DNA from: a virus
Virus genome (UHGV): UHGV-0144530
Length of the DNA stretch: 17,582 bases
Strand: one strand, 5' to 3'
Shown: positions 1 through 13,276 of the stretch, piece by piece
Layout: each line of letters opens with the position of its first letter
How positions within the stretch are numbered: position 1 is the stretch's first letter
Notes under the pieces: generated by a model
Database searches by the model: none
What the model was told of the DNA's origin: nothing
The model's input: the letters and a program-made list of their open reading frames with translations, nothing else
Translations under genes and position numbers: made by a program

Positions 1-192
1 TCAGGAGCATTTCTGATTAACGCCACCGTTAAGAATCCACCCTTCAACAGCTTCACGAAGGTATGATTTGGGGTGGGTTCTGACTGGCTTCGGAAATCCG
101 TGCCGTTTGGTATAGTTCCAGATTGTCTGACGTGATGAAACACCGAGCTTGTTCATCACTTCTTTCTCAGGAATCAGGCTGGTATCGGTCAT
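1..192 (-). CDS. xis: excisionase-like small DNA-binding protein (Xis/AlpA type)
   Basis: 63 aa ORF with stop at 1-3 and ATG at 192; RBS GGAGA 6 nt upstream; segment RQTIWNYTKRHGFPKPV resembles the lambda Xis / AlpA winged-helix region; sits at the distal end of the leftward operon where xis-int normally lie. Confidence 0.5.
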   Translation of the reverse strand: MTDTSLIPEKEVMNKLGVSSRQTIWNYTKRHGFPKPVRTHPKSYLREAVEGWILNGGVNQKCS

Positions 193-206
193 CTTAACTC
201 TCCAGG

Positions 207-232
207 CAAAAATAAACCGCCATATAGCGGCT
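207..232 (-). terminator. weak intrinsic terminator on minus strand
   Basis: minus-strand hairpin CCGC-tatatg-GCGG followed by a U-rich run TTTATTTTT; lies between the 114 aa ORF and xis. Confidence 0.35.
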
Positions 233-271
233 CTATCAGATATGAACAGGCCTCATCGAGTGTGAGGCGGG

Positions 272-616
272 TTAGTCCTTGCGTAGCTCGCTGATTCTTC
301 TGTAAGTCTCTGGTGCTTTGTTCCCGTACGTCTTCATTTCAGACTTCAACAGCGCGACGAGTGAATCCCATTCGTTGAGGATTCCTTTGAATGCCGGAAC
401 GCGCTTTGCAACCTTGTCGAATGAATCTCTGATTTCTGGAATCTGCTCAACAAGTGCAACGCATCGCCGAAAGTCTGCTGCGTCATGGGGAGCGCCGAAG
501 TGATGACCATAGATATTCTTTTTCAGGCCACATGCGATTGAGGCAAGAGTTGCGCTACTGATGCCGACATCGCCAGTTGATTGCCATTTCAAAACCTTCA
601 TAGCCAAATCTGACAT
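272..616 (-). CDS. hypothetical protein (114 aa)
   Basis: ORF-track frame 272..643 trimmed to the ATG at 616, which has RBS GGAGA 7 nt upstream; no motif recognised. Confidence 0.5.
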   Translation of the reverse strand: MSDLAMKVLKWQSTGDVGISSATLASIACGLKKNIYGHHFGAPHDAADFRRCVALVEQIPEIRDSFDKVAKRVPAFKGILNEWDSLVALLKSEMKTYGNKAPETYRRISELRKD

Positions 617-628
617 TTCTTGTCTCCA

Positions 629-652
629 ATAAAAAACCGCCATCAGGCGGCT
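629..652 (-). terminator. intrinsic terminator on minus strand
   Basis: minus-strand hairpin GCCGCC-tgat-GGCGGT followed by TTTTTTATT; downstream of the zinc-ribbon ORF. Confidence 0.5.
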
Positions 653-716
653 TGGTGTTCTTTCAGTTCTTCAATTCGAATATTGGTTACATTGTTTTCA
701 TATATGAATAAATAAA

Positions 717-896
717 TTAGCTTTTTTCGTTGCCTTCGCGTTCTTTATTAATTTTGACAAACTCGTTTTTACCACGCTCTCCAAATGCGTCTTTAGAGTC
801 GTTGTATCCGCAATCGCAGCACACATAATCATCAGACCATCCACGCATTGTTTTTTCTTTTGCAATATTTCCAGAACCGCATTTTGGACAAGACAT
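717..896 (-). CDS. small zinc-ribbon protein (C4 type, 59 aa)
   Basis: MSCPKCGSGN...YVCCDCGY gives CxxC-(17)-CxDC; strong RBS GGAGG 7 nt upstream of the ATG at 896; the alternative frame 698..937 is rejected. Confidence 0.55.
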   Translation of the reverse strand: MSCPKCGSGNIAKEKTMRGWSDDYVCCDCGYNDSKDAFGERGKNEFVKINKEREGNEKS

Positions 897-992
897 ATCA
901 CTACCTCCAAAGCATGAGAGAGATGACAACGTAACATTGATTGGAGATTAACAATAGATTGCTGATGTAAAAGATATGTATAAGCTTAGCTA

Positions 993-1631
993 TCAAAGAG
1001 GAGGTTCTGGTAGCGGCATCCAGTGGGTTACTTTCGATGCCGGTTCTTCCCCATCGTCAGTAACTGCCCACCATTTGTTTCTCGACCAATCGTAATACCC
1101 TTCGAAGGTATTGCACTCAGTCCAGCCGTAAGACTTACCCCAACACCAAACATACTGTTTATCGTTCGGCATTCGCTCACTACAGCTTATCCAACCATCC
1201 GGAGTTACCGGAGAGTTGCACGATAGCTGGTTCAACTTGTAAGTTTTGCTTACAGGTTCGGCACCATGAAGCATAGCGGCACGACAGGAGTTCCAGCCTC
1301 TCACCTCTGCAATAGCGGCAACAGCATCGACCGCGTACATTTTAAGATGGTTAGGCATTGGTTTTTCTTCAGGTACTACTGGCACTGGAGGGGCGGCATA
1401 AACAGGAATAACGTCCGATTGCTCTTTATTGCTTTCATCCGTTAAAGCCCAGAATAATTTTCCGGCCGGATGTTTGAAAATATAAGCAACTGGCTCTGCT
1501 TCCAGTGATGCCAGCGCAATCCGCGCCAGTTCTTCCGCTTCTTCTGCTGGCAGTACAACGTTGCTATCAGGTCCGTATGTTTCGCGCCACTGCTTGATTG
1601 TCAGTAGTCGCTCTTTGGTAATAGTGATCAT
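993..1631 (-). CDS. DUF551-like phage protein
   Basis: 212 aa; Trp-rich C-terminal region (DGWISCSERMPNDKQYVWCW ... THWMPLPEPP) typical of the DUF551 family common in enterobacterial prophage early regions; start overlaps the upstream stop (ATGA). Confidence 0.55.
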   Translation of the reverse strand: MITITKERLLTIKQWRETYGPDSNVVLPAEEAEELARIALASLEAEPVAYIFKHPAGKLFWALTDESNKEQSDVIPVYAAPPVPVVPEEKPMPNHLKMYAVDAVAAIAEVRGWNSCRAAMLHGAEPVSKTYKLNQLSCNSPVTPDGWISCSERMPNDKQYVWCWGKSYGWTECNTFEGYYDWSRNKWWAVTDDGEEPASKVTHWMPLPEPPL

Positions 1632-2143
1632 GCCGCGTTTCCTTCTTTCTTATTAACAATTACACCGTCATATATTTCATTAAGGTGCCCTCTCAACTCC
1701 ATGCGCCTTAATGCAGATAACATGTAATCGCATTCAACCTGCTTATTTCCAGTAAATGGCTTATCGTCAGGATTACCCCAACAGCAATTACCCTTGGGCC
1801 ACCCATGTACTTTCCGTACTCTTCCGTTAACAACGTGAAGTAATCCCCAGCCAGGTGGTAAATCCTCAATTGAAATAATTCCCGGCTCACTAATAAAGAA
1901 TCGCCAGTCGCCCATTCCAAGAGACGGATTTTTACGAAAACGCTTTTTTCTATCTGCCAACAAGTCAGCACGAGAACACTTCGCCTCTATCAGGCATGAT
2001 GCTGAATTTCTGAATCCCATAGCATCTGGCTGTTCTCCGGTACTGGTTACAGCTATAAAGCGGTCATGAAAACAAACCTTGAACCCGTTGCGCTTAAGGA
2101 ACTTGTACGCAATCTGACAGAGTTCGCGGTGTGTTAGCGCCAT
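1628..2143 (-). CDS. putative PD-(D/E)XK-fold nuclease-like protein (171 aa)
   Basis: start moved to the ATG at 2143 with RBS AAGGAGAG; motif GEQPDAMGF...(12)...LIEAKCS fits a PD-x(n)-ExK nuclease signature; fold assignment is inference. Confidence 0.4.
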   Translation of the reverse strand: MALTHRELCQIAYKFLKRNGFKVCFHDRFIAVTSTGEQPDAMGFRNSASCLIEAKCSRADLLADRKKRFRKNPSLGMGDWRFFISEPGIISIEDLPPGWGLLHVVNGRVRKVHGWPKGNCCWGNPDDKPFTGNKQVECDYMLSALRRMELRGHLNEIYDGVIVNKKEGNAA

Positions 2144-2144
2144 A

Positions 2145-2930
2145 TCACTCTCCTTTGATGCGAATGCCAGTAGCGCGGATTGCATCGATGACTTCAGAAA
2201 CTTTGTATGCCATTACCGTTTGGTAATCATCGTGAAAATCTGTTCGATGAAGCATGCTGCTACGTTCCGGGAGCGTTATTTCCCGAGCATCCAGTTCCTT
2301 AACGCGTTCCTCCAGTTCGTAGACCCTGCATTGTTCTCTATCATCAATCAGATATAACCCAAGACATTCGCTTTCTACCCAACCGCCAAAATCATGATCG
2401 TAACGCTCACATGAAAACTCACCGTCACCGTCCTTTGTTGGAATGGTGTAACTGTCTAATGGGCCACCGTACGTCGGCACATTTCCTAATGTCGGATGCT
2501 CAATCCACATAAAAAATGCACGTCCGGTTATTGGGCAAATATCTGGCCGCCATTGGTTACGAACAGCGTTGGTTTCTGATAATTCTTCAGCGTGTTGTTT
2601 TACTTCCTCAAGCTCAACACGCAGCTTCCCTACCGTTAGCGCAATATCCTCGTTCTCCTGATCGCGGCTTTTGATGTATTGCAGGTTTCTTTCCCGTTCA
2701 TCCAGCAACGCCTGCACTACTTCAGGGTTGAAAGCTGCGATATAACGCGCGTTATTCTCTGCGTTTTCCTGTCCATCAAAGCCGGTCCATTTGATAACGT
2801 CTTCACATCGTTTATCACCGGGTGTATGCACCGCATATGTACCAGTACCCGACGAAATAAATGCGACCCATTCGCCCTGCGTGGCCTGTTTTGCTATCTC
2901 ACGCAGTGCCTGATAGTCAATCTTGCTCAC
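2145..2930 (-). CDS. Ea22-like early accessory protein (tentative)
   Basis: 261 aa; GTG start at 2930 preceded by RBS AAGGAGG; conserved-looking N-terminus [21 protein letters not shown], central coiled-coil and Cys-rich C-terminus, in the ea22 position between the recombination module and xis. Confidence 0.35.
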   Translation of the reverse strand: MSKIDYQALREIAKQATQGEWVAFISSGTGTYAVHTPGDKRCEDVIKWTGFDGQENAENNARYIAAFNPEVVQALLDERERNLQYIKSRDQENEDIALTVGKLRVELEEVKQHAEELSETNAVRNQWRPDICPITGRAFFMWIEHPTLGNVPTYGGPLDSYTIPTKDGDGEFSCERYDHDFGGWVESECLGLYLIDDREQCRVYELEERVKELDAREITLPERSSMLHRTDFHDDYQTVMAYKVSEVIDAIRATGIRIKGE

Positions 2931-3529
2931 TGGTTGCCTCCTTTTCGAAGCTGGGCGGCGATATCTTCGAGAACGCCATCAGAGAATGAGCGGTCAAAAT
3001 CGCCTTCCGGCGCATTAGCCATAAACTCAGTAGAGGTAAGAATCATCCGGGCAATATCCGCGGCGTTCTTCGCAGTATCATCAATAAAACCAGCTTCCCA
3101 GGCAGCCAGCATTCTGTTCGCCACAAAGTAAGCGCCCTCCTTGCGTGCTTCAGTCTTCACTTCAGCCAGGAAAGCATCGGTGGCTGGTGTTTGCGGCATC
3201 CCTCCATCTGTTGCGCAGATATACGCATCAGATATTTCATCCTGCTCGCCATCAAACACGTAGCAACTCTGTGCGATAAATTTATTCAGCCCAGCATTCT
3301 CCGCTGCCAGTGCTGAAAACTTCTCGTGTGCCAACTTAACAGCAGAATCAGCCTGCTTAATTGACTCAATCGCTTTCTGTTGGTCTTCGGACAGAGCTGA
3401 AATCTTGGCCTCCGCTTCAGTAAATTTGCGTACCAGATATTCAGCATTTGTTTCGTTAACCTTTAAATCACATGGGATGCATTTACCTTTCAGAAAACCA
3501 TCCATCTCAATTAGTGACATTTGTTTCAT
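2927..3529 (-). CDS. hypothetical protein (200 aa), coiled-coil rich
   Basis: ATG at 3529 overlaps the stop of the upstream ORF (ATGA coupling); no recognised motif. Confidence 0.45.
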
Positions 3530-3690
3530 TTCTTCCCACTCCGCCACATCGCATTCAGATATTTGTTTTGATTCACTGATGGAAAAGAATTTCTCTTAAG
3601 AAATTCCTCTCTCGATGGCATTGGCTTTACGCGTTGGCGAATAATCATTTCTGCCGGAAGAATGCCGGGATTGTATGCAAGTCCTCTCAT
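3526..3690 (-). CDS. hypothetical small protein (54 aa)
   Basis: ATG at 3690 preceded by GAGGAA; translationally coupled to neighbours. Confidence 0.35.
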
Positions 3691-3700
3691 GGTAAATTCC

Positions 3701-3997
3701 TCAGTCATTACTGATAGCGCCATAGCGTGAGCGGTAATTACGCAGGCGCGGGTCGATATATTCAGGGAATTTGTCTATTGTCGCTTTTCGCAACGGTCTC
3801 ATTGCTGTTTCGTTTGTTCGGTCCTTCTCCTGTTTTAGCGCGAGTTGTATATCGCGTCGGTACATCCGTTCTGCTTTTGTTTCTGGTGTCAGAGCAAGAA
3901 ACGCGTCGAAATTGTTTTTGATATTTTCCAGCACCTCCGCCTTGGAGCTACCGGAGCAATTGCGCGGGTCATCCGCACCATACAGAGGCGCTGGCAT
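3701..3997 (-). CDS. hypothetical protein (98 aa)
   Basis: ORF-track ORF in the leftward operon; weak RBS. Confidence 0.4.
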
Positions 3998-4020
3998 AAT
4001 GGGAGCCTTATTTTCAATAA

Positions 4021-4608
4021 TCAGAAAGGAGGGTAATCGTTCTGGCTGTAACCATAATCATCTGCATGATTCTGGCTTACGTTTTTAGAGCGATTGTCTT
4101 TATCTTTGAGGCTGGCAACCATGTTGGCGATAGTTTCTGGTTGCTTGCCTTCCGCCTTTTCTTTAAGGGTTTGACCTGTTTGTGCAATAAACGGGATGCG
4201 TATTTCCATCTGGTAGCTGTCTGCGCCAGTCTTTTTGTTTGTGGTTAATACTTTCTGGAGCACTAACCCGATTTTCTTTCCATGAAACTCAGGAGCAACA
4301 AATTTACTGGCGGAAACCATATGTTGCGTTAATTGTCCAATCCCGGCACACCCCATCATGGCGTGAACGACATTTGCGCCAAATTTGTTTTCCGTTCCGT
4401 CATTTTTCTGAACACAGACGCTAAGATATTGGATTTTACGTCCGTCGTCGGATTCTCCAGAAAACTCAATAAATTTGGCTCCTTTTTCTGATTGCTTTAG
4501 TTCTGCTTCAGTAATGGTAATGATATGGGCGCCAGTTTCGTTAATAAAACCACCTTGCCCTGCGGTCAGTGCTGCTTCTTCGTTATAAGTAAAAATCACG
4601 TTGCTCAT
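4021..4608 (-). CDS. putative ssDNA-binding / recombination accessory protein with SSB-like acidic C-terminal tip
   Basis: 195 aa; C-terminus ...DDYGYSQNDYPPF resembles the conserved SSB tail (D-D-D-I-P-F); translationally coupled (ATGA) to the upstream AAA ATPase, as in Sak4-SSB modules. Confidence 0.4.
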   Translation of the reverse strand: MSNVIFTYNEEAALTAGQGGFINETGAHIITITEAELKQSEKGAKFIEFSGESDDGRKIQYLSVCVQKNDGTENKFGANVVHAMMGCAGIGQLTQHMVSASKFVAPEFHGKKIGLVLQKVLTTNKKTGADSYQMEIRIPFIAQTGQTLKEKAEGKQPETIANMVASLKDKDNRSKNVSQNHADDYGYSQNDYPPF

Positions 4609-5285
4609 GCGGCGTTTTCCTTAATTTGATGAACATTATTGATGCCGTAGTAATCACAAACAGTGGCATCGACGAAAGAGAGATCGTTATCAATCTCATT
4701 GGAATCAAACATTCCCATTGGGGATTTGACAGTGTCTGCACCGTTGTTTTTCGTGGTGAAAAAGAACTGGTCATCGCGGGTAAGAGTGCGAAGAACTATA
4801 GTAAACATGCCTTCGACAGTGATTTTCTCGTCCAGCATTTTGCCGATAGTTTTCATTTTCACGCGCCCCATAGGGGTTTCTTCGGTATGTGCAAGAAAAT
4901 AGACTCTCAGGTCATCAGGTGCATCCTGTGCAGCCTTAATCACCTCCCATGCGTGGCGGCCTATCTCAGTAAATTTATCAAACGATTTTTCTTCTGAGCG
5001 GCGCATAAACTCATTGCTCATCACATACTGGAAGTCATCAACAATAACGATTCTTTTTCCGTATTCGTGAGCACGCTTAATTGCAGCAACTATTACGTCC
5101 CATTTGTCAGTGGTAACTACGGTTCCTTTTTTTGCTCTGGCATCCCATGCAAGCCAGTCTTTTGATTTAAATGGTAGCGGCTTGCCTATTGGTTTTATAA
5201 GTATTGCTTCCTCTGGATTGATATTTCTCATGCTGGTTGATTTTCCGGTGCCAGATTCACCGAGTATTAATGTCGCAGTTCCCAT
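4605..5285 (-). CDS. RecA-fold AAA_24-type ATPase (Sak4-like recombination protein)
   Basis: 226 aa; Walker A GESGTGKST near the N-terminus; hydrophobic strand plus acidic residues IVIVDDFQ as Walker B; size and position (where lambda gam/bet/exo sit) match phage Sak4-like ATPases; RBS GAGG. Confidence 0.55.
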   Translation of the reverse strand: MGTATLILGESGTGKSTSMRNINPEEAILIKPIGKPLPFKSKDWLAWDARAKKGTVVTTDKWDVIVAAIKRAHEYGKRIVIVDDFQYVMSNEFMRRSEEKSFDKFTEIGRHAWEVIKAAQDAPDDLRVYFLAHTEETPMGRVKMKTIGKMLDEKITVEGMFTIVLRTLTRDDQFFFTTKNNGADTVKSPMGMFDSNEIDNDLSFVDATVCDYYGINNVHQIKENAA

Positions 5286-5482: not shown

Positions 5483-5592
5483 TTTGACCTCCATTTTCTG
5501 TAGGCTTCTACGGCTTCACGAAACATCTTTTCATCGCCAATAAAAGTGGCGATAGTGAATTTAGTCTGGATAGCCATAAGTGTTTTATCCAT
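5479..5592 (-). CDS. kil: Kil-like host-killing protein (37 aa)
   Basis: MDKTLMAIQTKFTIATFIGDEKMFREAV...; start ATGGATAAA overlaps the 3' end of cIII as lambda kil does; identity recalled from memory, not searched. Confidence 0.5.
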   Translation of the reverse strand: MDKTLMAIQTKFTIATFIGDEKMFREAVEAYRKWRSK

Positions 5593-5725
5593 TTTTGGGA
5601 ACTCCTGGCTGATTAAGTATGTCGATAAGGCGTTTCCATCCATCACGTAATTTACGTGTGATTCGTTCAAGTAAAGATTCGGAAGGGCAGCCAGCAACAG
5701 GCCACCCTGCAATGGCATATTGCAT
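5585..5725 (-). CDS. cIII: CIII, inhibitor of FtsH-mediated CII degradation
   Basis: MQYAIAGWPVAGCPSESLLERITRKLRDGWKRLIDILNQPGVPKNG matches lambda CIII almost residue for residue; RBS AAGGAG; ORF-track frame 5585..5827 trimmed to the ATG at 5725. Confidence 0.8.
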   Translation of the reverse strand: MQYAIAGWPVAGCPSESLLERITRKLRDGWKRLIDILNQPGVPKNG

Positions 5726-5782
5726 GGTGTGCTCCTTATTTATACATAACGAAAAACGCCTCGAGTGAAGCGTTATTGGTAT

Positions 5783-5811
5783 GCATATAAAAAGGCCCTC
5801 ACACTGGAGGG
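5783..5811 (-). terminator. intrinsic terminator-like hairpin on minus strand
   Basis: minus-strand CCCTCC-agtgtg-AGGG followed by CCTTTTTATAT; upstream of cIII. Confidence 0.4.
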
Positions 5812-5874
5812 CAAAGAAGATTTCCAATAATCAGAACAAGTCGGCTCCTGTTTAGTTACGAGCGACATTGCTCC

Positions 5875-6765: not shown

Positions 6766-7035
6766 TTACCTCGCCGTCAGTTGTTTTGATTTCCGGTAGC
6801 CTGCCGCGTAAATAGCTACGTTTGGCAGGCAAATACTTCCACTGCATTCATCTGCCTTCTTGCAGCGAAGGCTTCCGAGTGATGCTGCTTTATCTGCTCT
6901 GACGCAACCAGAGAGCTTTAGCGCAATTTTTCGTGCCAATCGCTGTTCTTGCATTGCCTGTTCACGTTGAGCCTGTCTGCGTGCTCTGCGGCGATTTCTG
7001 GCGTTATCATCAGCCAGATAAGTAACGATTATCAT
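6766..7035 (-). CDS. N: N-like transcription antiterminator (89 aa)
   Basis: arginine-rich motif NARNRRRARRQAQREQ near the N-terminus; strong RBS GGAGG 5 nt upstream of the ATG at 7035; lies downstream of nutL; ORF-track 6766..7164 is an unsupported in-frame 5' extension. Confidence 0.6.
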   Translation of the reverse strand: MIIVTYLADDNARNRRRARRQAQREQAMQEQRLARKIALKLSGCVRADKAASLGSLRCKKADECSGSICLPNVAIYAAGYRKSKQLTAR

Positions 7036-7465
7036 GTTGACCTCCGATGATTGGCTTTGGTGATTAGGTGGACGGTACTGATCTCCGGCTTGGTTAGTGC
7101 TTCGCCTGGTCATTATCACGCCTAGTGACCCCCTGAGGATCGTCTCCTCGCCAGTGCAGGTCATATCGCATCAGTCTGCGCATTCACCCAATCCCAAAGC
7201 CAACTACTCTTTGACTCACACTCTCGCAGTGAGCGCGCTCATGCCATTGAGTCTCTGCCGCTTCATCGCCGCTGATAACCGGTGCGCGTCTGGCATTCGC
7301 GCTGCTTTACCGGAGCTACTTTTAATATATTGACCCTAACCCGATGCTAAGCAGGCTCGCTCAATGGCGACTCAGGGCAGCATCATTACTGCTGCATTGC
7401 CTTTCGGCTGCGGTCTAACCGCGTTAGTGCACCATTACGGCACCTCCTGTTTGGTTAAACTCAGT

Positions 7466-8128: not shown

Positions 8129-8836
8129 TTACCAACTATGAGACGACCAGAATACTCTGCCAATAATCCTTACGGTTTCATGAAATTCATCTCTATCCAT
8201 TACTTCATCCGGGTACTCTTCGCGATTTATTGATCTGATTATCACCGATGTAGGGGTGGCGATTAATGTTTTTACTCGTAACAAATCAGACTGGCAAATA
8301 GCGTAGGTTTTACCATCTCTGATTGTGGTATCTTGCGTGTTAACACCAACAACATCGCCATCGTGAAGCGTTGGTTCCATGCTTTGCCCTACAACCCTAA
8401 CTAGCTTGGCTGATCTTTCTGATACTCCCATCTTTTTCAGATAGTGCTTTCTGAAAACCAAAGAGAACTCCGATGATTCCTCTAGCTCGCAGCTACCGCT
8501 TCCAGCTGAAAGCGAAACGTTAAGAAGAGGCAACGCAACAAACTCGTCATCGTTTCTTTTAATGTCTTCCCATACCACAGCTTTTAAAGATGACTCACGG
8601 ACATTGGATGGTTCTTCATGTGCACCATCCCTCATTTCACCAATACCAGAACTAAGCCATTCAGGACGCACTTTTAAAGCATTGGCTAATTCAACCATCT
8701 TGCGAGATCCGTTTGTTTTACCGGACGACATCTTCTGTATGGCTGGCTGAGATATTCCAACCATGTCAGCAAGCTGTGATTGTGATACCCCTGCTGAGCT
8801 CATGGCTGCATTTAGTCTTTCTGCGAATGTTTTCAT
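8129..8836 (-). CDS. cI: CI-type prophage repressor (HTH plus S24 LexA-like peptidase domain)
   Basis: N-terminal HTH (VSQSQLADMVGISQPAIQKM), Ala-Gly cleavage site in SLSAGSG, catalytic Ser in GQSMEPT and Lys in LRVKTL; ATG at 8836 abuts the operators; ORF-track 8129..8866 begins at an upstream TTG. Confidence 0.85.
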   Translation of the reverse strand: MKTFAERLNAAMSSAGVSQSQLADMVGISQPAIQKMSSGKTNGSRKMVELANALKVRPEWLSSGIGEMRDGAHEEPSNVRESSLKAVVWEDIKRNDDEFVALPLLNVSLSAGSGSCELEESSEFSLVFRKHYLKKMGVSERSAKLVRVVGQSMEPTLHDGDVVGVNTQDTTIRDGKTYAICQSDLLRVKTLIATPTSVIIRSINREEYPDEVMDRDEFHETVRIIGRVFWSSHSW

Positions 8837-8848
8837 ACTCACAAATCT

Positions 8849-8914
8849 ATAACTACGGTTATCCAAAGTAAAATAACAAAGGTTATTGCTATTTTTTATA
8901 ACTTGAGTTATCTT
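8849..8914. promoter_or_regulatory. OR operators with divergent pRM and pR
   Basis: three perfect 14 bp palindromes ATAAC-N4-GTTAT at 8849-8862, 8873-8886 and 8898-8911, centres 24-25 bp apart; plus-strand -35 TTGCTA (8886-8891), 17 bp spacer, -10 TATCTT (8909-8914). Confidence 0.65.
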
Positions 8915-12582: not shown

Positions 12583-12687
12583 ATGACAATCTACATCACT
12601 GAGCTAATAGCAGGGTTATCGTTACTAATGGTTCTTACTGTATATATTATTAAGTATATTCTTTATGCGAATAAAAAAAACAATTGA
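12583..12687 (+). CDS. candidate single-TM micro-protein (34 aa)
   Basis: MTIYITELIAGLSLLMVLTVYIIKYILYANKKNN; the ATG directly follows the primase-helicase stop, with GGAG 8 nt upstream; AT-rich; its 3' end overlaps the HNH start across an A8 tract. Confidence 0.3.
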   Translation: MTIYITELIAGLSLLMVLTVYIIKYILYANKKNN

Positions 12688-13276
12688 TCACGATGAGCTT
12701 CTGTCAACATTATCATATGACTCAGAAACAGGAATATTTAAATGGCTAAAAACAAATTCAGTAGTAAGAGTAAAAGGTAGTATTGCTGGAGGTGTTAGTG
12801 GTGGTTATATATGCATTAGCATAAATAATGTTTTGTATTATGCGCATAGGCTTGCTTGGTTCTATGTATACAAAAAATGGCCTCCTAAGTTTATTGATCA
12901 TGTAAATGGGAACAGACTTGACAATAGGATTTCAAATCTAAGACTGGCAACAGAGGAGCAGAATGCAAGAAACATTGTAGGTAATAGGTTAAACACATCC
13001 GGTGCGATTGGAGTGTCTTGGGATAAGACAACTGGCAGGTGGAAGTCTTATGTTGGTTATAAAAATAAGACAATATCGTTAGGGTATTTCGATAGCAAAG
13101 AAGATGCAGCATTCATAGCAGCACTAGCAAGAAAGAAACTATATGGAACTTATGCGAGTAAAGCACTTAATTGCGAGCATGAGCTTTTATCTCAATTTAA
13201 TAATGATGAGGATAAACTTGCGGAATATCTTAAGGAAAAATCTAAAAGGACTCGAAAGCGTGTTAAAAAAAGATAA
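12665..13276 (+). CDS. HNH endonuclease with C-terminal AP2 DNA-binding domain (homing-endonuclease-like)
   Basis: HNH_3-type motif YAHRLAWFYVYKKWPPKFIDHVNGNRLDNRISNLRLATEEQNARN followed by an AP2-like segment SGAIGVSWDKTTGRWKSYVGYKNKTISLGYFDSKEDAAFIA; AT-rich codon usage; no obvious RBS. Confidence 0.75.
   Translation: MRIKKTIDHDELLSTLSYDSETGIFKWLKTNSVVRVKGSIAGGVSGGYICISINNVLYYAHRLAWFYVYKKWPPKFIDHVNGNRLDNRISNLRLATEEQNARNIVGNRLNTSGAIGVSWDKTTGRWKSYVGYKNKTISLGYFDSKEDAAFIAALARKKLYGTYASKALNCEHELLSQFNNDEDKLAEYLKEKSKRTRKRVKKR

Follow-up and report, generated by a model that had tools for sequence, protein, structure and literature searches.

MmcB of Caulobacter crescentus, according to PMC9578287 (citing Lopes-Kulishev 2015) a PD-(D/E)XK endonuclease induced in the SOS response, is described there as necessary for resistance to mitomycin C and cisplatin, and the same source puts forward the hypothesis that it acts with translesion polymerases on interstrand crosslinks. 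The solved representative of DUF1052 (PF06319, COG5321) is SPO1766 of Ruegeria pomeroyi (PDB 3dnx), which is included in a catalogue of the PD-(D/E)XK superfamily (PMC3424549). Close relatives of SPO1766 contain PF06319 and bear the annotation "MmcB family DNA repair protein", and COG5321/DUF1052 has also been linked to archaeal Holliday-junction resolvases (PMC1189080). The present analysis concerns a 171-residue protein encoded on the minus strand at positions 1628–2143 of a 17,582-nucleotide stretch of the virus genome UHGV-0144530 (hereafter the window), for which an initial annotation, made from the sequence alone, had suggested a PD-(D/E)XK-like nuclease. Profile searches, structure prediction and residue conservation indicate that the protein almost certainly has the PD-(D/E)XK fold. 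It is best filed as an apparent uncurated sister family of the MmcB-like proteins (PF06319/DUF1052/COG5321), its nearest family, because it falls below the curated thresholds, yet PF06319 is the nearest family by both homology and structure. On balance, the protein is best explained as a small, single-domain PD-(D/E)XK phosphodiesterase, related to MmcB, that would act on branched or damaged DNA. The features of the gene on which this assignment draws are as follows.

1628–2143, minus strand: gene for the predicted MmcB-like PD-(D/E)XK nuclease, with an ATG start codon at 2143–2141 and a TGA stop codon at 1630–1628 (171 residues, MALTHRELCQ...NAA, then stop).
2150–2153, minus strand: Shine-Dalgarno sequence GGAG, read directly from the sequence, 6 nucleotides 5' of the nuclease ATG and within the last codons of the Ea22-like gene.
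2063–2065, minus strand: codon for the acidic residue D27, which closes strand beta1 and aligns with E29 of SPO1766, the conserved Glu of MmcB proteins.
1979–2035, minus strand: codons for E37-Q-P39-D40 ... E53-A-K55, the putative PD-(D/E)XK catalytic motif, placed by conservation in 47 relatives, by the structure model and by alignment to D39 and E53-C-K55 of SPO1766/3dnx.
1943–1975, minus strand: codons for S57-R58-x-D60-x-x-x-D64-x-x-K67, forming the helix after ExK with the pattern "SRxD(F)xxDxxK", a signature common to MmcB-like proteins and aligned with SRADFQADAK of 3dnx.
1691–1744, minus strand: codons for a C-terminal helix (approximately residues 134–150) with the invariant E137 and R146-R147, placed by the model and by conservation, outside the region of the profile-profile match.

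The relationship to MmcB emerges only when diverse relatives are used in the search. Two alignments and the corresponding profiles were prepared, one from 28 close relatives that are 59–88% identical (A1) and one from 47 diverse representatives that are 34–56% identical (A2). A single-sequence phmmer search against the PDB returned noise only (lectin PVL, flavin oxidoreductase, Toc34), and the A1 profile reached 3dnx at an E value of just 0.28. A search with the A2 profile (hmmsearch) found 3dnx at E 9.4e-5 over residues 12–117, and an hhalign comparison of A2 with 21 PF06319 proteins gave a probability of 98.0% (E 1.6e-13, 95 columns). This alignment pairs D/E27 with E29 of SPO1766, D40 with D39, and E53-x-K55 with E53-C-K55; it continues through S-R-x-D-x-x-x-D-x-x-K, which is paired with SRADFQADAK, through R81 and R76, and through an LP..GLL element present on both sides. 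The MmcB signature that follows strand 3, E-C-K-S-S-R-A-D-F-x-x-D-x-K, is recognizable in the query as E53-A-K-C-S-R-A-D-L-L-A-D-R-K-K67, and the consensus of the phage family reads IECKxSRxDFLADxKK. PF06319 itself matches 13 of the 47 relatives weakly (best E 2.9e-4), and the curated cut-off of neither PF06319 nor the NCBIfam MmcB model is reached, as the query has no match at E ≤ 1 and the relatives do no better than 2.9e-4. A similar pattern was obtained with the archaeal resolvase family Hjc (PF01870), which matches 33 of the 47 relatives weakly (best E 1.3e-4, all below threshold); the query has no PF01870 match, and the Pfam cut-off is not reached. The A2 profile also aligns with Hjc chains at E ~0.1 over a segment running from the end of helix 1 to ExK. 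The weak matches to Hjc and PF06319 agree with the older link between COG5321 and resolvases (PMC1189080).

The predicted structure is consistent with this relationship. The AlphaFold2 (AF2) model built from the 47-sequence alignment has a predicted local distance difference test score (pLDDT) of 94.7 and a predicted template modelling score (pTM) of 0.88, and supersedes an earlier AF2 model from the 28 close relatives (pLDDT 73, with a poor C-terminus). The model contains a helix (5–18), three strands (23–26, 41–45 and 48–54), a second helix (58–64) and a further strand (80–85), which together make up the alpha-beta-beta-beta-alpha-beta core of the PD-(D/E)XK superfamily, followed by a hairpin (100–113) and a C-terminal helix (134–150). 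D40 lies directly before strand 2, and E53 and K55 lie at the end of strand 3, which is the canonical placement of the PD-(D/E)XK residues. The structural match to 3dnx is clearly better than that to other PD-(D/E)XK families. The neighbours with names in a Foldseek search of predicted viral structures (BFVD) include phage proteins labelled "MmcB-like" and "MmcB family DNA repair protein", which are the nearest of those named. The profile and structure-prediction checks that the initial annotation had called for thus confirm a restriction-endonuclease-like fold with its catalytic residues in place.

The motif from which the nuclease suggestion started, PD-x(12)-E-A-K, is present as stated (P39-D40, 12 residues, E53-A54-K55). 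The exact spacing arises in 0.2% of composition-preserving shuffles of the protein, while the generic pattern PD-x(8-25)-[DE]-x-K arises in 5.8% and D-x(8-25)-[DE]xK in 60%. The caution of the initial annotation that it relied on a short motif was therefore well placed: since the generic pattern is frequent in shuffles, the motif by itself is weak evidence, and it is conservation, profile and fold that make it significant. A chance occurrence of PD...ExK in an unrelated fold, for which both the shuffles and the lack of a Pfam or NCBIfam match could be cited, is extremely improbable because fold, profile and conservation assign the motif to strands 2 and 3 of a PD-(D/E)XK core. So far as computation can refute it, this explanation is refuted by the MmcB profile-profile match and the AF2 model. 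The nuclease reading itself is supported by the same A2 match to 3dnx, the profile-profile match and the near-invariance of the motif.

Conservation of individual residues extends well beyond the motif. D27, E37, D40, E53, K55, R58, D60, D64 and K67 are invariant in the 28 close relatives. Across the 47 diverse relatives, D40, D60, G78, R81 and E137 are present in every sequence, and E37, P39, E53, K55, D64, K67 and R70 are each present in 46; S57 (43 sequences), R58 (40), R146 (44) and R147 (40) are slightly more variable, and position 27 is acidic in 45 (Glu in 35, Asp in 10). The motif does not, then, sit in a non-catalytic context, which had been named as the finding that would count against a nuclease, as its residues are essentially invariant in diverse relatives. 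From its alignment, D27 is a probable extra metal ligand, and one might guess that the C-terminal helix binds DNA. The description of the C-terminus as rich in Cys and Trp is correct as to composition, as the protein contains seven Cys and four Trp residues and its C-terminal half includes C120, C121, C138, W99, W115 and W122. However, C120, C121 and C138 vary across the 47 relatives, so there is no conserved metal-binding Cys cluster, and a conserved C-terminal Cys/Trp metal site was rejected. The only conserved residue among the tryptophans checked in the relatives (W80, W99, W122) is W99, which is kept in 45 of the 47.

Taken with the placement of these residues in the model, their conservation suggests that the protein is very probably a catalytically active nuclease. 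In the proposed mechanism, D40, which heads strand 2, and the strand 3 residues E53 and K55 would form the standard metal-dependent site for phosphodiester hydrolysis, with E37 and the acidic residue at position 27 nearby, and the enzyme would cut DNA in a Mg2+-dependent manner. The gene would be transcribed in a leftward early, pL-type, N-antiterminated operon, so that the protein would be made right after infection or prophage induction together with a recombination set consisting of a Sak4-like ATPase, a single-strand DNA binding (SSB)-like protein and Abc2. Its substrate would be a DNA structure rather than a sequence, as suggested by the kinship to MmcB and, more distantly, to Hjc, and by the position of the gene in other phages; likely candidates are branched intermediates of replication or recombination, and DNA whose damage or crosslinks stand in the way of phage replication. 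The hydrolytic site in this scheme is drawn from sequence, model and conservation; we infer the DNA cleavage, the early expression and the substrate. That the enzyme serves the replication, recombination or repair of phage DNA with specificity for a structure or lesion is argued by analogy with MmcB and from the primase, helicase and NinB neighbourhoods of its relatives; this role is considered the most likely one, but is proposed only tentatively, at somewhat less than an even chance.

The gene is real, to judge from its sequence and that of its relatives: conservation at the protein level spans 88% to 34% identity, with the same Met at the start. The start codon is assigned to the ATG at 2143 because the homologues begin at this Met and the GGAG ribosome-binding site is positioned for it; a 185-residue reading from an ATG at 2185 was dropped for the same reasons. 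An 87-residue open reading frame (ORF) that overlaps the gene at 1708–1971 was judged to be probably spurious, as conservation tracks the 171-residue frame. The two adjacent genes are the following.

2145–2930, minus strand: Ead/Ea22-like gene, upstream neighbour (PF13935, E 7.9e-35).
993–1631, minus strand: DUF551 gene, downstream neighbour (PF04448, E 3.8e-17).

Tight coupling to these two genes had been noted earlier and holds on both sides. The Ea22-like gene stops with TGA at 2145–2147, leaving a single nucleotide before the nuclease ATG, and the ATG of the DUF551 gene overlaps the nuclease stop codon in the sequence ATGA (1628–1631). The arrangement is local to this lineage and not family-wide, as Ea22 accounts for only 2 of the 150 neighbouring ORFs in the census of relatives described below; a three-gene Ea22-nuclease-DUF551 cassette as a property of the family was consequently rejected, although the segment is shared with phage P7.

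The position beside an Ea22-like gene raises the possibility that the protein retains the nuclease fold without its chemistry, binding DNA or protein and modulating the choice between lysis and lysogeny in the manner of the exo-xis genes (ea22, orf60a, orf61, orf63). The gene does occupy a position equivalent to the exo-xis region, a pro-lysogenic effect of Ea22 has been reported (PMC7093339, PMC10834534), and PD-(D/E)XK folds have sometimes been recruited to non-catalytic roles (PMC3424549). This is nonetheless improbable, as the residues of the catalytic motif are kept in 46–47 of 47 relatives down to 34% identity, including virulent phages that make no lysogeny decision, and the linkage to Ea22 is the limited one just described. 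A modelling paper on the exo-xis region makes no mention of a nuclease, DUF551 or a resolvase (PMC8614690).

The window as a whole corresponds to the early region of a lambdoid genome resembling those of Sf101, HK620 and the Stx phages. Reading leftward from cI, the order is N, cIII, an AAA_24 ATPase, a 195-residue ORF, Abc2, a 206-residue ORF, the Ea22-like gene, the nuclease, DUF551 and three further ORFs (717–929, 272–643 and 1–192); the rightward genes are O, a primase-helicase, an HNH-AP2 endonuclease, NinB, NinG, a NinI-type phosphatase, Q and a holin. The individual features are listed below.

8129–8866: cI repressor gene.
6766–7164, minus strand: N.
5585–5827, minus strand: cIII ORF.
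5680–5738, minus strand: lambda cIII thermoregulator RNA element RF01804 (88.5 bits), inside the cIII ORF and the sole Rfam match in the window.
4605–5285, minus strand: Sak4-like AAA_24 ATPase.
4021–4608, minus strand: 195-residue ORF without a Pfam match, corresponding in size and location to the "single strand DNA binding protein" of phage TL-2011c.
3701–3997, minus strand: Abc2 anti-RecBCD protein, P22-type (PF11043, E 1.5e-35).
2927–3547, minus strand: 206-residue ORF without a Pfam match; phrog_14548, phrog_614 and the Ea22-related phrog_368.
717–929, minus strand: 70-residue Cys-rich zinc-ribbon ORF with sub-threshold matches to the restriction-alleviation family Lar (PF14354, E 1.6e-4; 22.3 bits, cut-off 28.6) and to PF07754, a family of small zinc fingers.
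272–643, minus strand: ORF without assignment.
1–192, minus strand: short ORF at the edge of the window.
12665–13276, plus strand: 203-residue ORF after the primase-helicase and before NinB, with HNH_3 (E 8e-16) and AP2 DNA-binding (E 1e-7) domains.

The combination of HNH_3 and AP2 in the last of these is the architecture of a homing endonuclease. The recombination module at 3701–5285 is not of the Red type, as it consists of the Sak4-like ATPase, the SSB-like ORF and Abc2. The ORF at 2927–3547 and the Ea22-like gene share phrog_368, and their coding regions overlap by 4 nucleotides. The ORF at 717–929 may be a Lar-like anti-restriction gene of the same accessory block, and two strong terminator-like hairpins on the minus strand (653–634 and 233–214) flank the ORF at 272–643. 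A consensus scan found no sigma70-like promoter on the minus strand within 1–4200, and a single site in all (on the plus strand) where 6.1 were expected. The order of the genes, their shared strand and tight coupling from N and cIII through the AAA_24, SSB-like, Abc2 and Ea22 genes, downstream of the cI/pL region, and the lack of a promoter of its own suggest leftward early, pL-type expression of the nuclease gene. We infer that it is read from the N-antiterminated leftward early transcript, is silent in the lysogen, and is expressed at once on infection or induction.

Relatives of the protein are abundant. The query is 100% identical to Upf89.0 of phage P7, 98.8–100% identical to proteins of Stx1a and Stx2a phages, 99.4% identical to a protein of Escherichia phage TL-2011c and 90% identical to a Klebsiella phage protein. 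The P7 and Stx phage entries are annotated as "unknown protein function" or "hypothetical protein"; a protein of a Vibrio phage (Mardecavirus), 53% identical, is the only relative annotated as an "endonuclease". The best PHROGs matches, phrog_9263 (2e-123) and phrog_631 (1e-94), are both of "unknown function", and a weak match was obtained to phrog_5429, "DNA repair protein" (3e-3). The N-terminal 113 residues are 42–46% identical to proteins of Kuttervirus phages (Ackermannviridae). In the Kuttervirus homologues (Salmonella phage ST-W77, L004 3980–4597, and other Ackermannviridae) the catalytic core is common and the C-terminal half is different; as these homologues share only the N-terminal ~113 residues, the core appears to be joined to at least two different C-terminal modules. 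Relatives are present in 641 phage records, and at least 1000 contigs carry the exact sequence, for which all names listed are "hypothetical" or "uncharacterised". A hidden Markov model (HMM) search of 1.84 billion cluster representatives found 3239 clusters (50% identity) at E ≤ 1e-3 and 2404 at E ≤ 1e-10. A pattern-limited scan of species-representative genomes with A1 gave 33 loci, mostly in Enterobacterales and other Gammaproteobacteria, together with one Rhodobiaceae and one Flavobacterium locus of the family; the three most distant loci resemble mobile elements (MuF_C, LPD38, NA37, a methylase, a PDDEXK_1 protein and RtcB). The family is thus carried by phages and other mobile elements and has no curated model.

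Comparison of the loci at the DNA level suggests exchange of the segment that contains the gene. Positions 1364–2705 of the window are 96.8% identical to phage P7 (AF503408; L001 3439–4780), a stretch that takes in the complete nuclease gene, flanked by the 3' portion of the Ea22-like gene and the 5' portion of the DUF551 gene. DNA similar to positions 900–3600 is found at 718 places on E. coli plasmids, those listed being 94–102 kb, the size of P1 and P7. The Ea22-nuclease-DUF551 segment therefore looks like a mosaic module exchanged between lambdoid and P1/P7-type phages. In other phages the relatives lie among replication and recombination genes. Vibrio phage PVP21 has the gene between those for a DNA helicase and the primase, and in Kuttervirus ST-W77 it precedes the primase gene by two genes. 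In Klebsiella phage 2 LV-2017 it has replication genes on one side and NinB/NinG on the other, and in Vibrio phage D273 it comes after NinB and a DNA methyltransferase and before an HNH gene.

The surroundings of the family were also surveyed by a Pfam census of 150 same-strand neighbouring ORFs (≥110 residues, ≤2.5 kb) at 35 IMG/VR loci of distinct or divergent homologues. DNA methylases are the commonest neighbours (10 of 150: C5 six, Dam two, N6_N4 one and MT-A70 one), followed by integrase and DUF7831 (four each), RdgC, DnaB and NinG (three each), NinB and Ea22 (two each), and P, O and SSB (one each). A methyltransferase lies directly upstream in two loci, in Vibrio phage D273 (L006 3391–4002) and in a Rhodobiaceae locus (L119 3049–3804). 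These neighbours, together with a fold that is also that of type II restriction enzymes, could suggest a restriction-type endonuclease that is paired with a DNA methyltransferase, whether restriction-modification-like or modification-dependent. Such a pairing is very improbable here, as the Pfam scan yielded no methyltransferase for the window ORFs that it covered, and the loci of P7, PVP21, Kuttervirus and the Klebsiella phage have none beside the gene. Orphan methylases are common in phage early regions, which counts against this pairing too, and the methylase-rich neighbourhood may simply reflect the make-up of those regions. The common denominator of the loci is an early region of DNA replication, recombination and modification.

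Several observations weigh against an MmcB-like enzyme acting on branched or damaged DNA. In the census, none of the partner genes is conserved family-wide, so that context provides only a general signal of an early DNA-metabolism region. The phage already encodes NinG/Rap and NinB, and a second structure-specific nuclease is therefore not obviously needed. The query protein has no Pfam or NCBIfam match at E ≤ 1, and it matches none of the PADLOC-DB defence models (0 families at E ≤ 0.1). A literature search found no paper on Upf89.0, phrog_9263, phrog_631 or F366_gp08, and the substrate of MmcB itself is, in the passages on it in PMC9578287, only hypothesized. Finally, the gene belongs to the variable accessory block that separates the recombination genes from xis, and genes of anti-defence and host takeover often occur there. 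This position, with the anti-RecBCD protein Abc2 and the sub-threshold Lar-like ORF at 717–929 in the neighbourhood, would fit an active nuclease of anti-defence, host takeover or exclusion, which would target host DNA, the DNA of competing phages or plasmids, or the nucleic acid of a defence system. The mosaic and mobile nature of the gene, as seen in the P7-like segment and the 718 plasmid places, is consistent with such a function, as are the methyltransferases that head the census. However, the PADLOC-DB result counts against it, the virulent phages hold the gene in a core replication module beside helicase and primase, which is unusual for anti-defence cargo, and the nearest characterized relatives are enzymes of repair and resolution. 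Exclusion in particular is unlikely because the gene has no promoter of its own and would therefore probably not be expressed from a repressed prophage. Overall, a nuclease directed at host, competitor or defence-system nucleic acid is considered unlikely, if worthy of serious attention, and an MmcB-related phosphodiesterase acting on branched or damaged DNA remains the preferred explanation.

A more specific and rather doubtful extension of this explanation is that the family is a dedicated phage damage-clearing nuclease, a mobile counterpart of MmcB that would work on the phage genome itself, unhooking crosslinks or cleaving forks that have stalled or branched. In temperate phages the nuclease would be made within minutes of induction by DNA damage, and in virulent phages at the same time as primase and helicase, so that a chromosome hurt by the inducing agent (mitomycin C, UV) could still replicate. 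If this were true, an effect on the yield of Stx phages after induction by antibiotics or mitomycin would be expected. Independently of this proposal, a common "hypothetical" gene of Stx1- and Stx2-converting phages and P7 becomes testable as an MmcB-like PD-(D/E)XK nuclease. The assignment is new as an annotation, and it points to a family that Pfam and NCBIfam do not cover, an omission that could be made good by a new model or by broadening PF06319. As a biological object the gene is ordinary and represents no new kind of system, as small PD-(D/E)XK nucleases are expected in phage early regions.

Comparison with known systems places the protein at different distances from several PD-(D/E)XK groups. 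Its likeness to type II restriction enzymes and to the nuclease domains of CRISPR-ancillary proteins (SdaI, PaqCI, NgoMIV, Can2, Card1) is at the level of the superfamily only, with 9–15% identity; the phage protein has no recognition or sensor domain, and neither a methyltransferase nor a CARF partner is encoded by the window ORFs scanned. The archaeal resolvases Hjc and Hje (PF01870; 1hh1, 1ob8, 2wcw) share with it a minimal PD-(D/E)XK domain of similar size, but the matches to them are below threshold and this phage already has a resolvase of the NinG/Rap type. Upf89.0 of P7 and the Stx phage proteins (phrog_9263/phrog_631) are the same protein, and in P7 the gene (X) stands in the same order, Ead-like / X / DUF551-like. 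The MmcB-like proteins differ from the phage family in several respects. The latter has an insertion of approximately seven residues between helix 2 and strand 4, which comes with a conserved motif of its own, K67-x-F-R70...G76-M-G78-D-W-R81, and residues 118–171 of the phage protein, with the invariant E137 and R146-R147, lie outside the hhalign match. MmcB-like proteins are mostly alpha-proteobacterial (PMC3424549), whereas the phage family resides in mobile elements of Enterobacterales, Vibrio and others, and the phage gene would be expressed from a phage early operon instead of being under LexA control. The two families nevertheless share an acidic residue on beta1, the Asp on beta2 and E-x-K on beta3, together with the S-R-x-D-F-x-x-D-x-K signature, a later Arg (R81/R76) and the LP..GL(L/I) elements.

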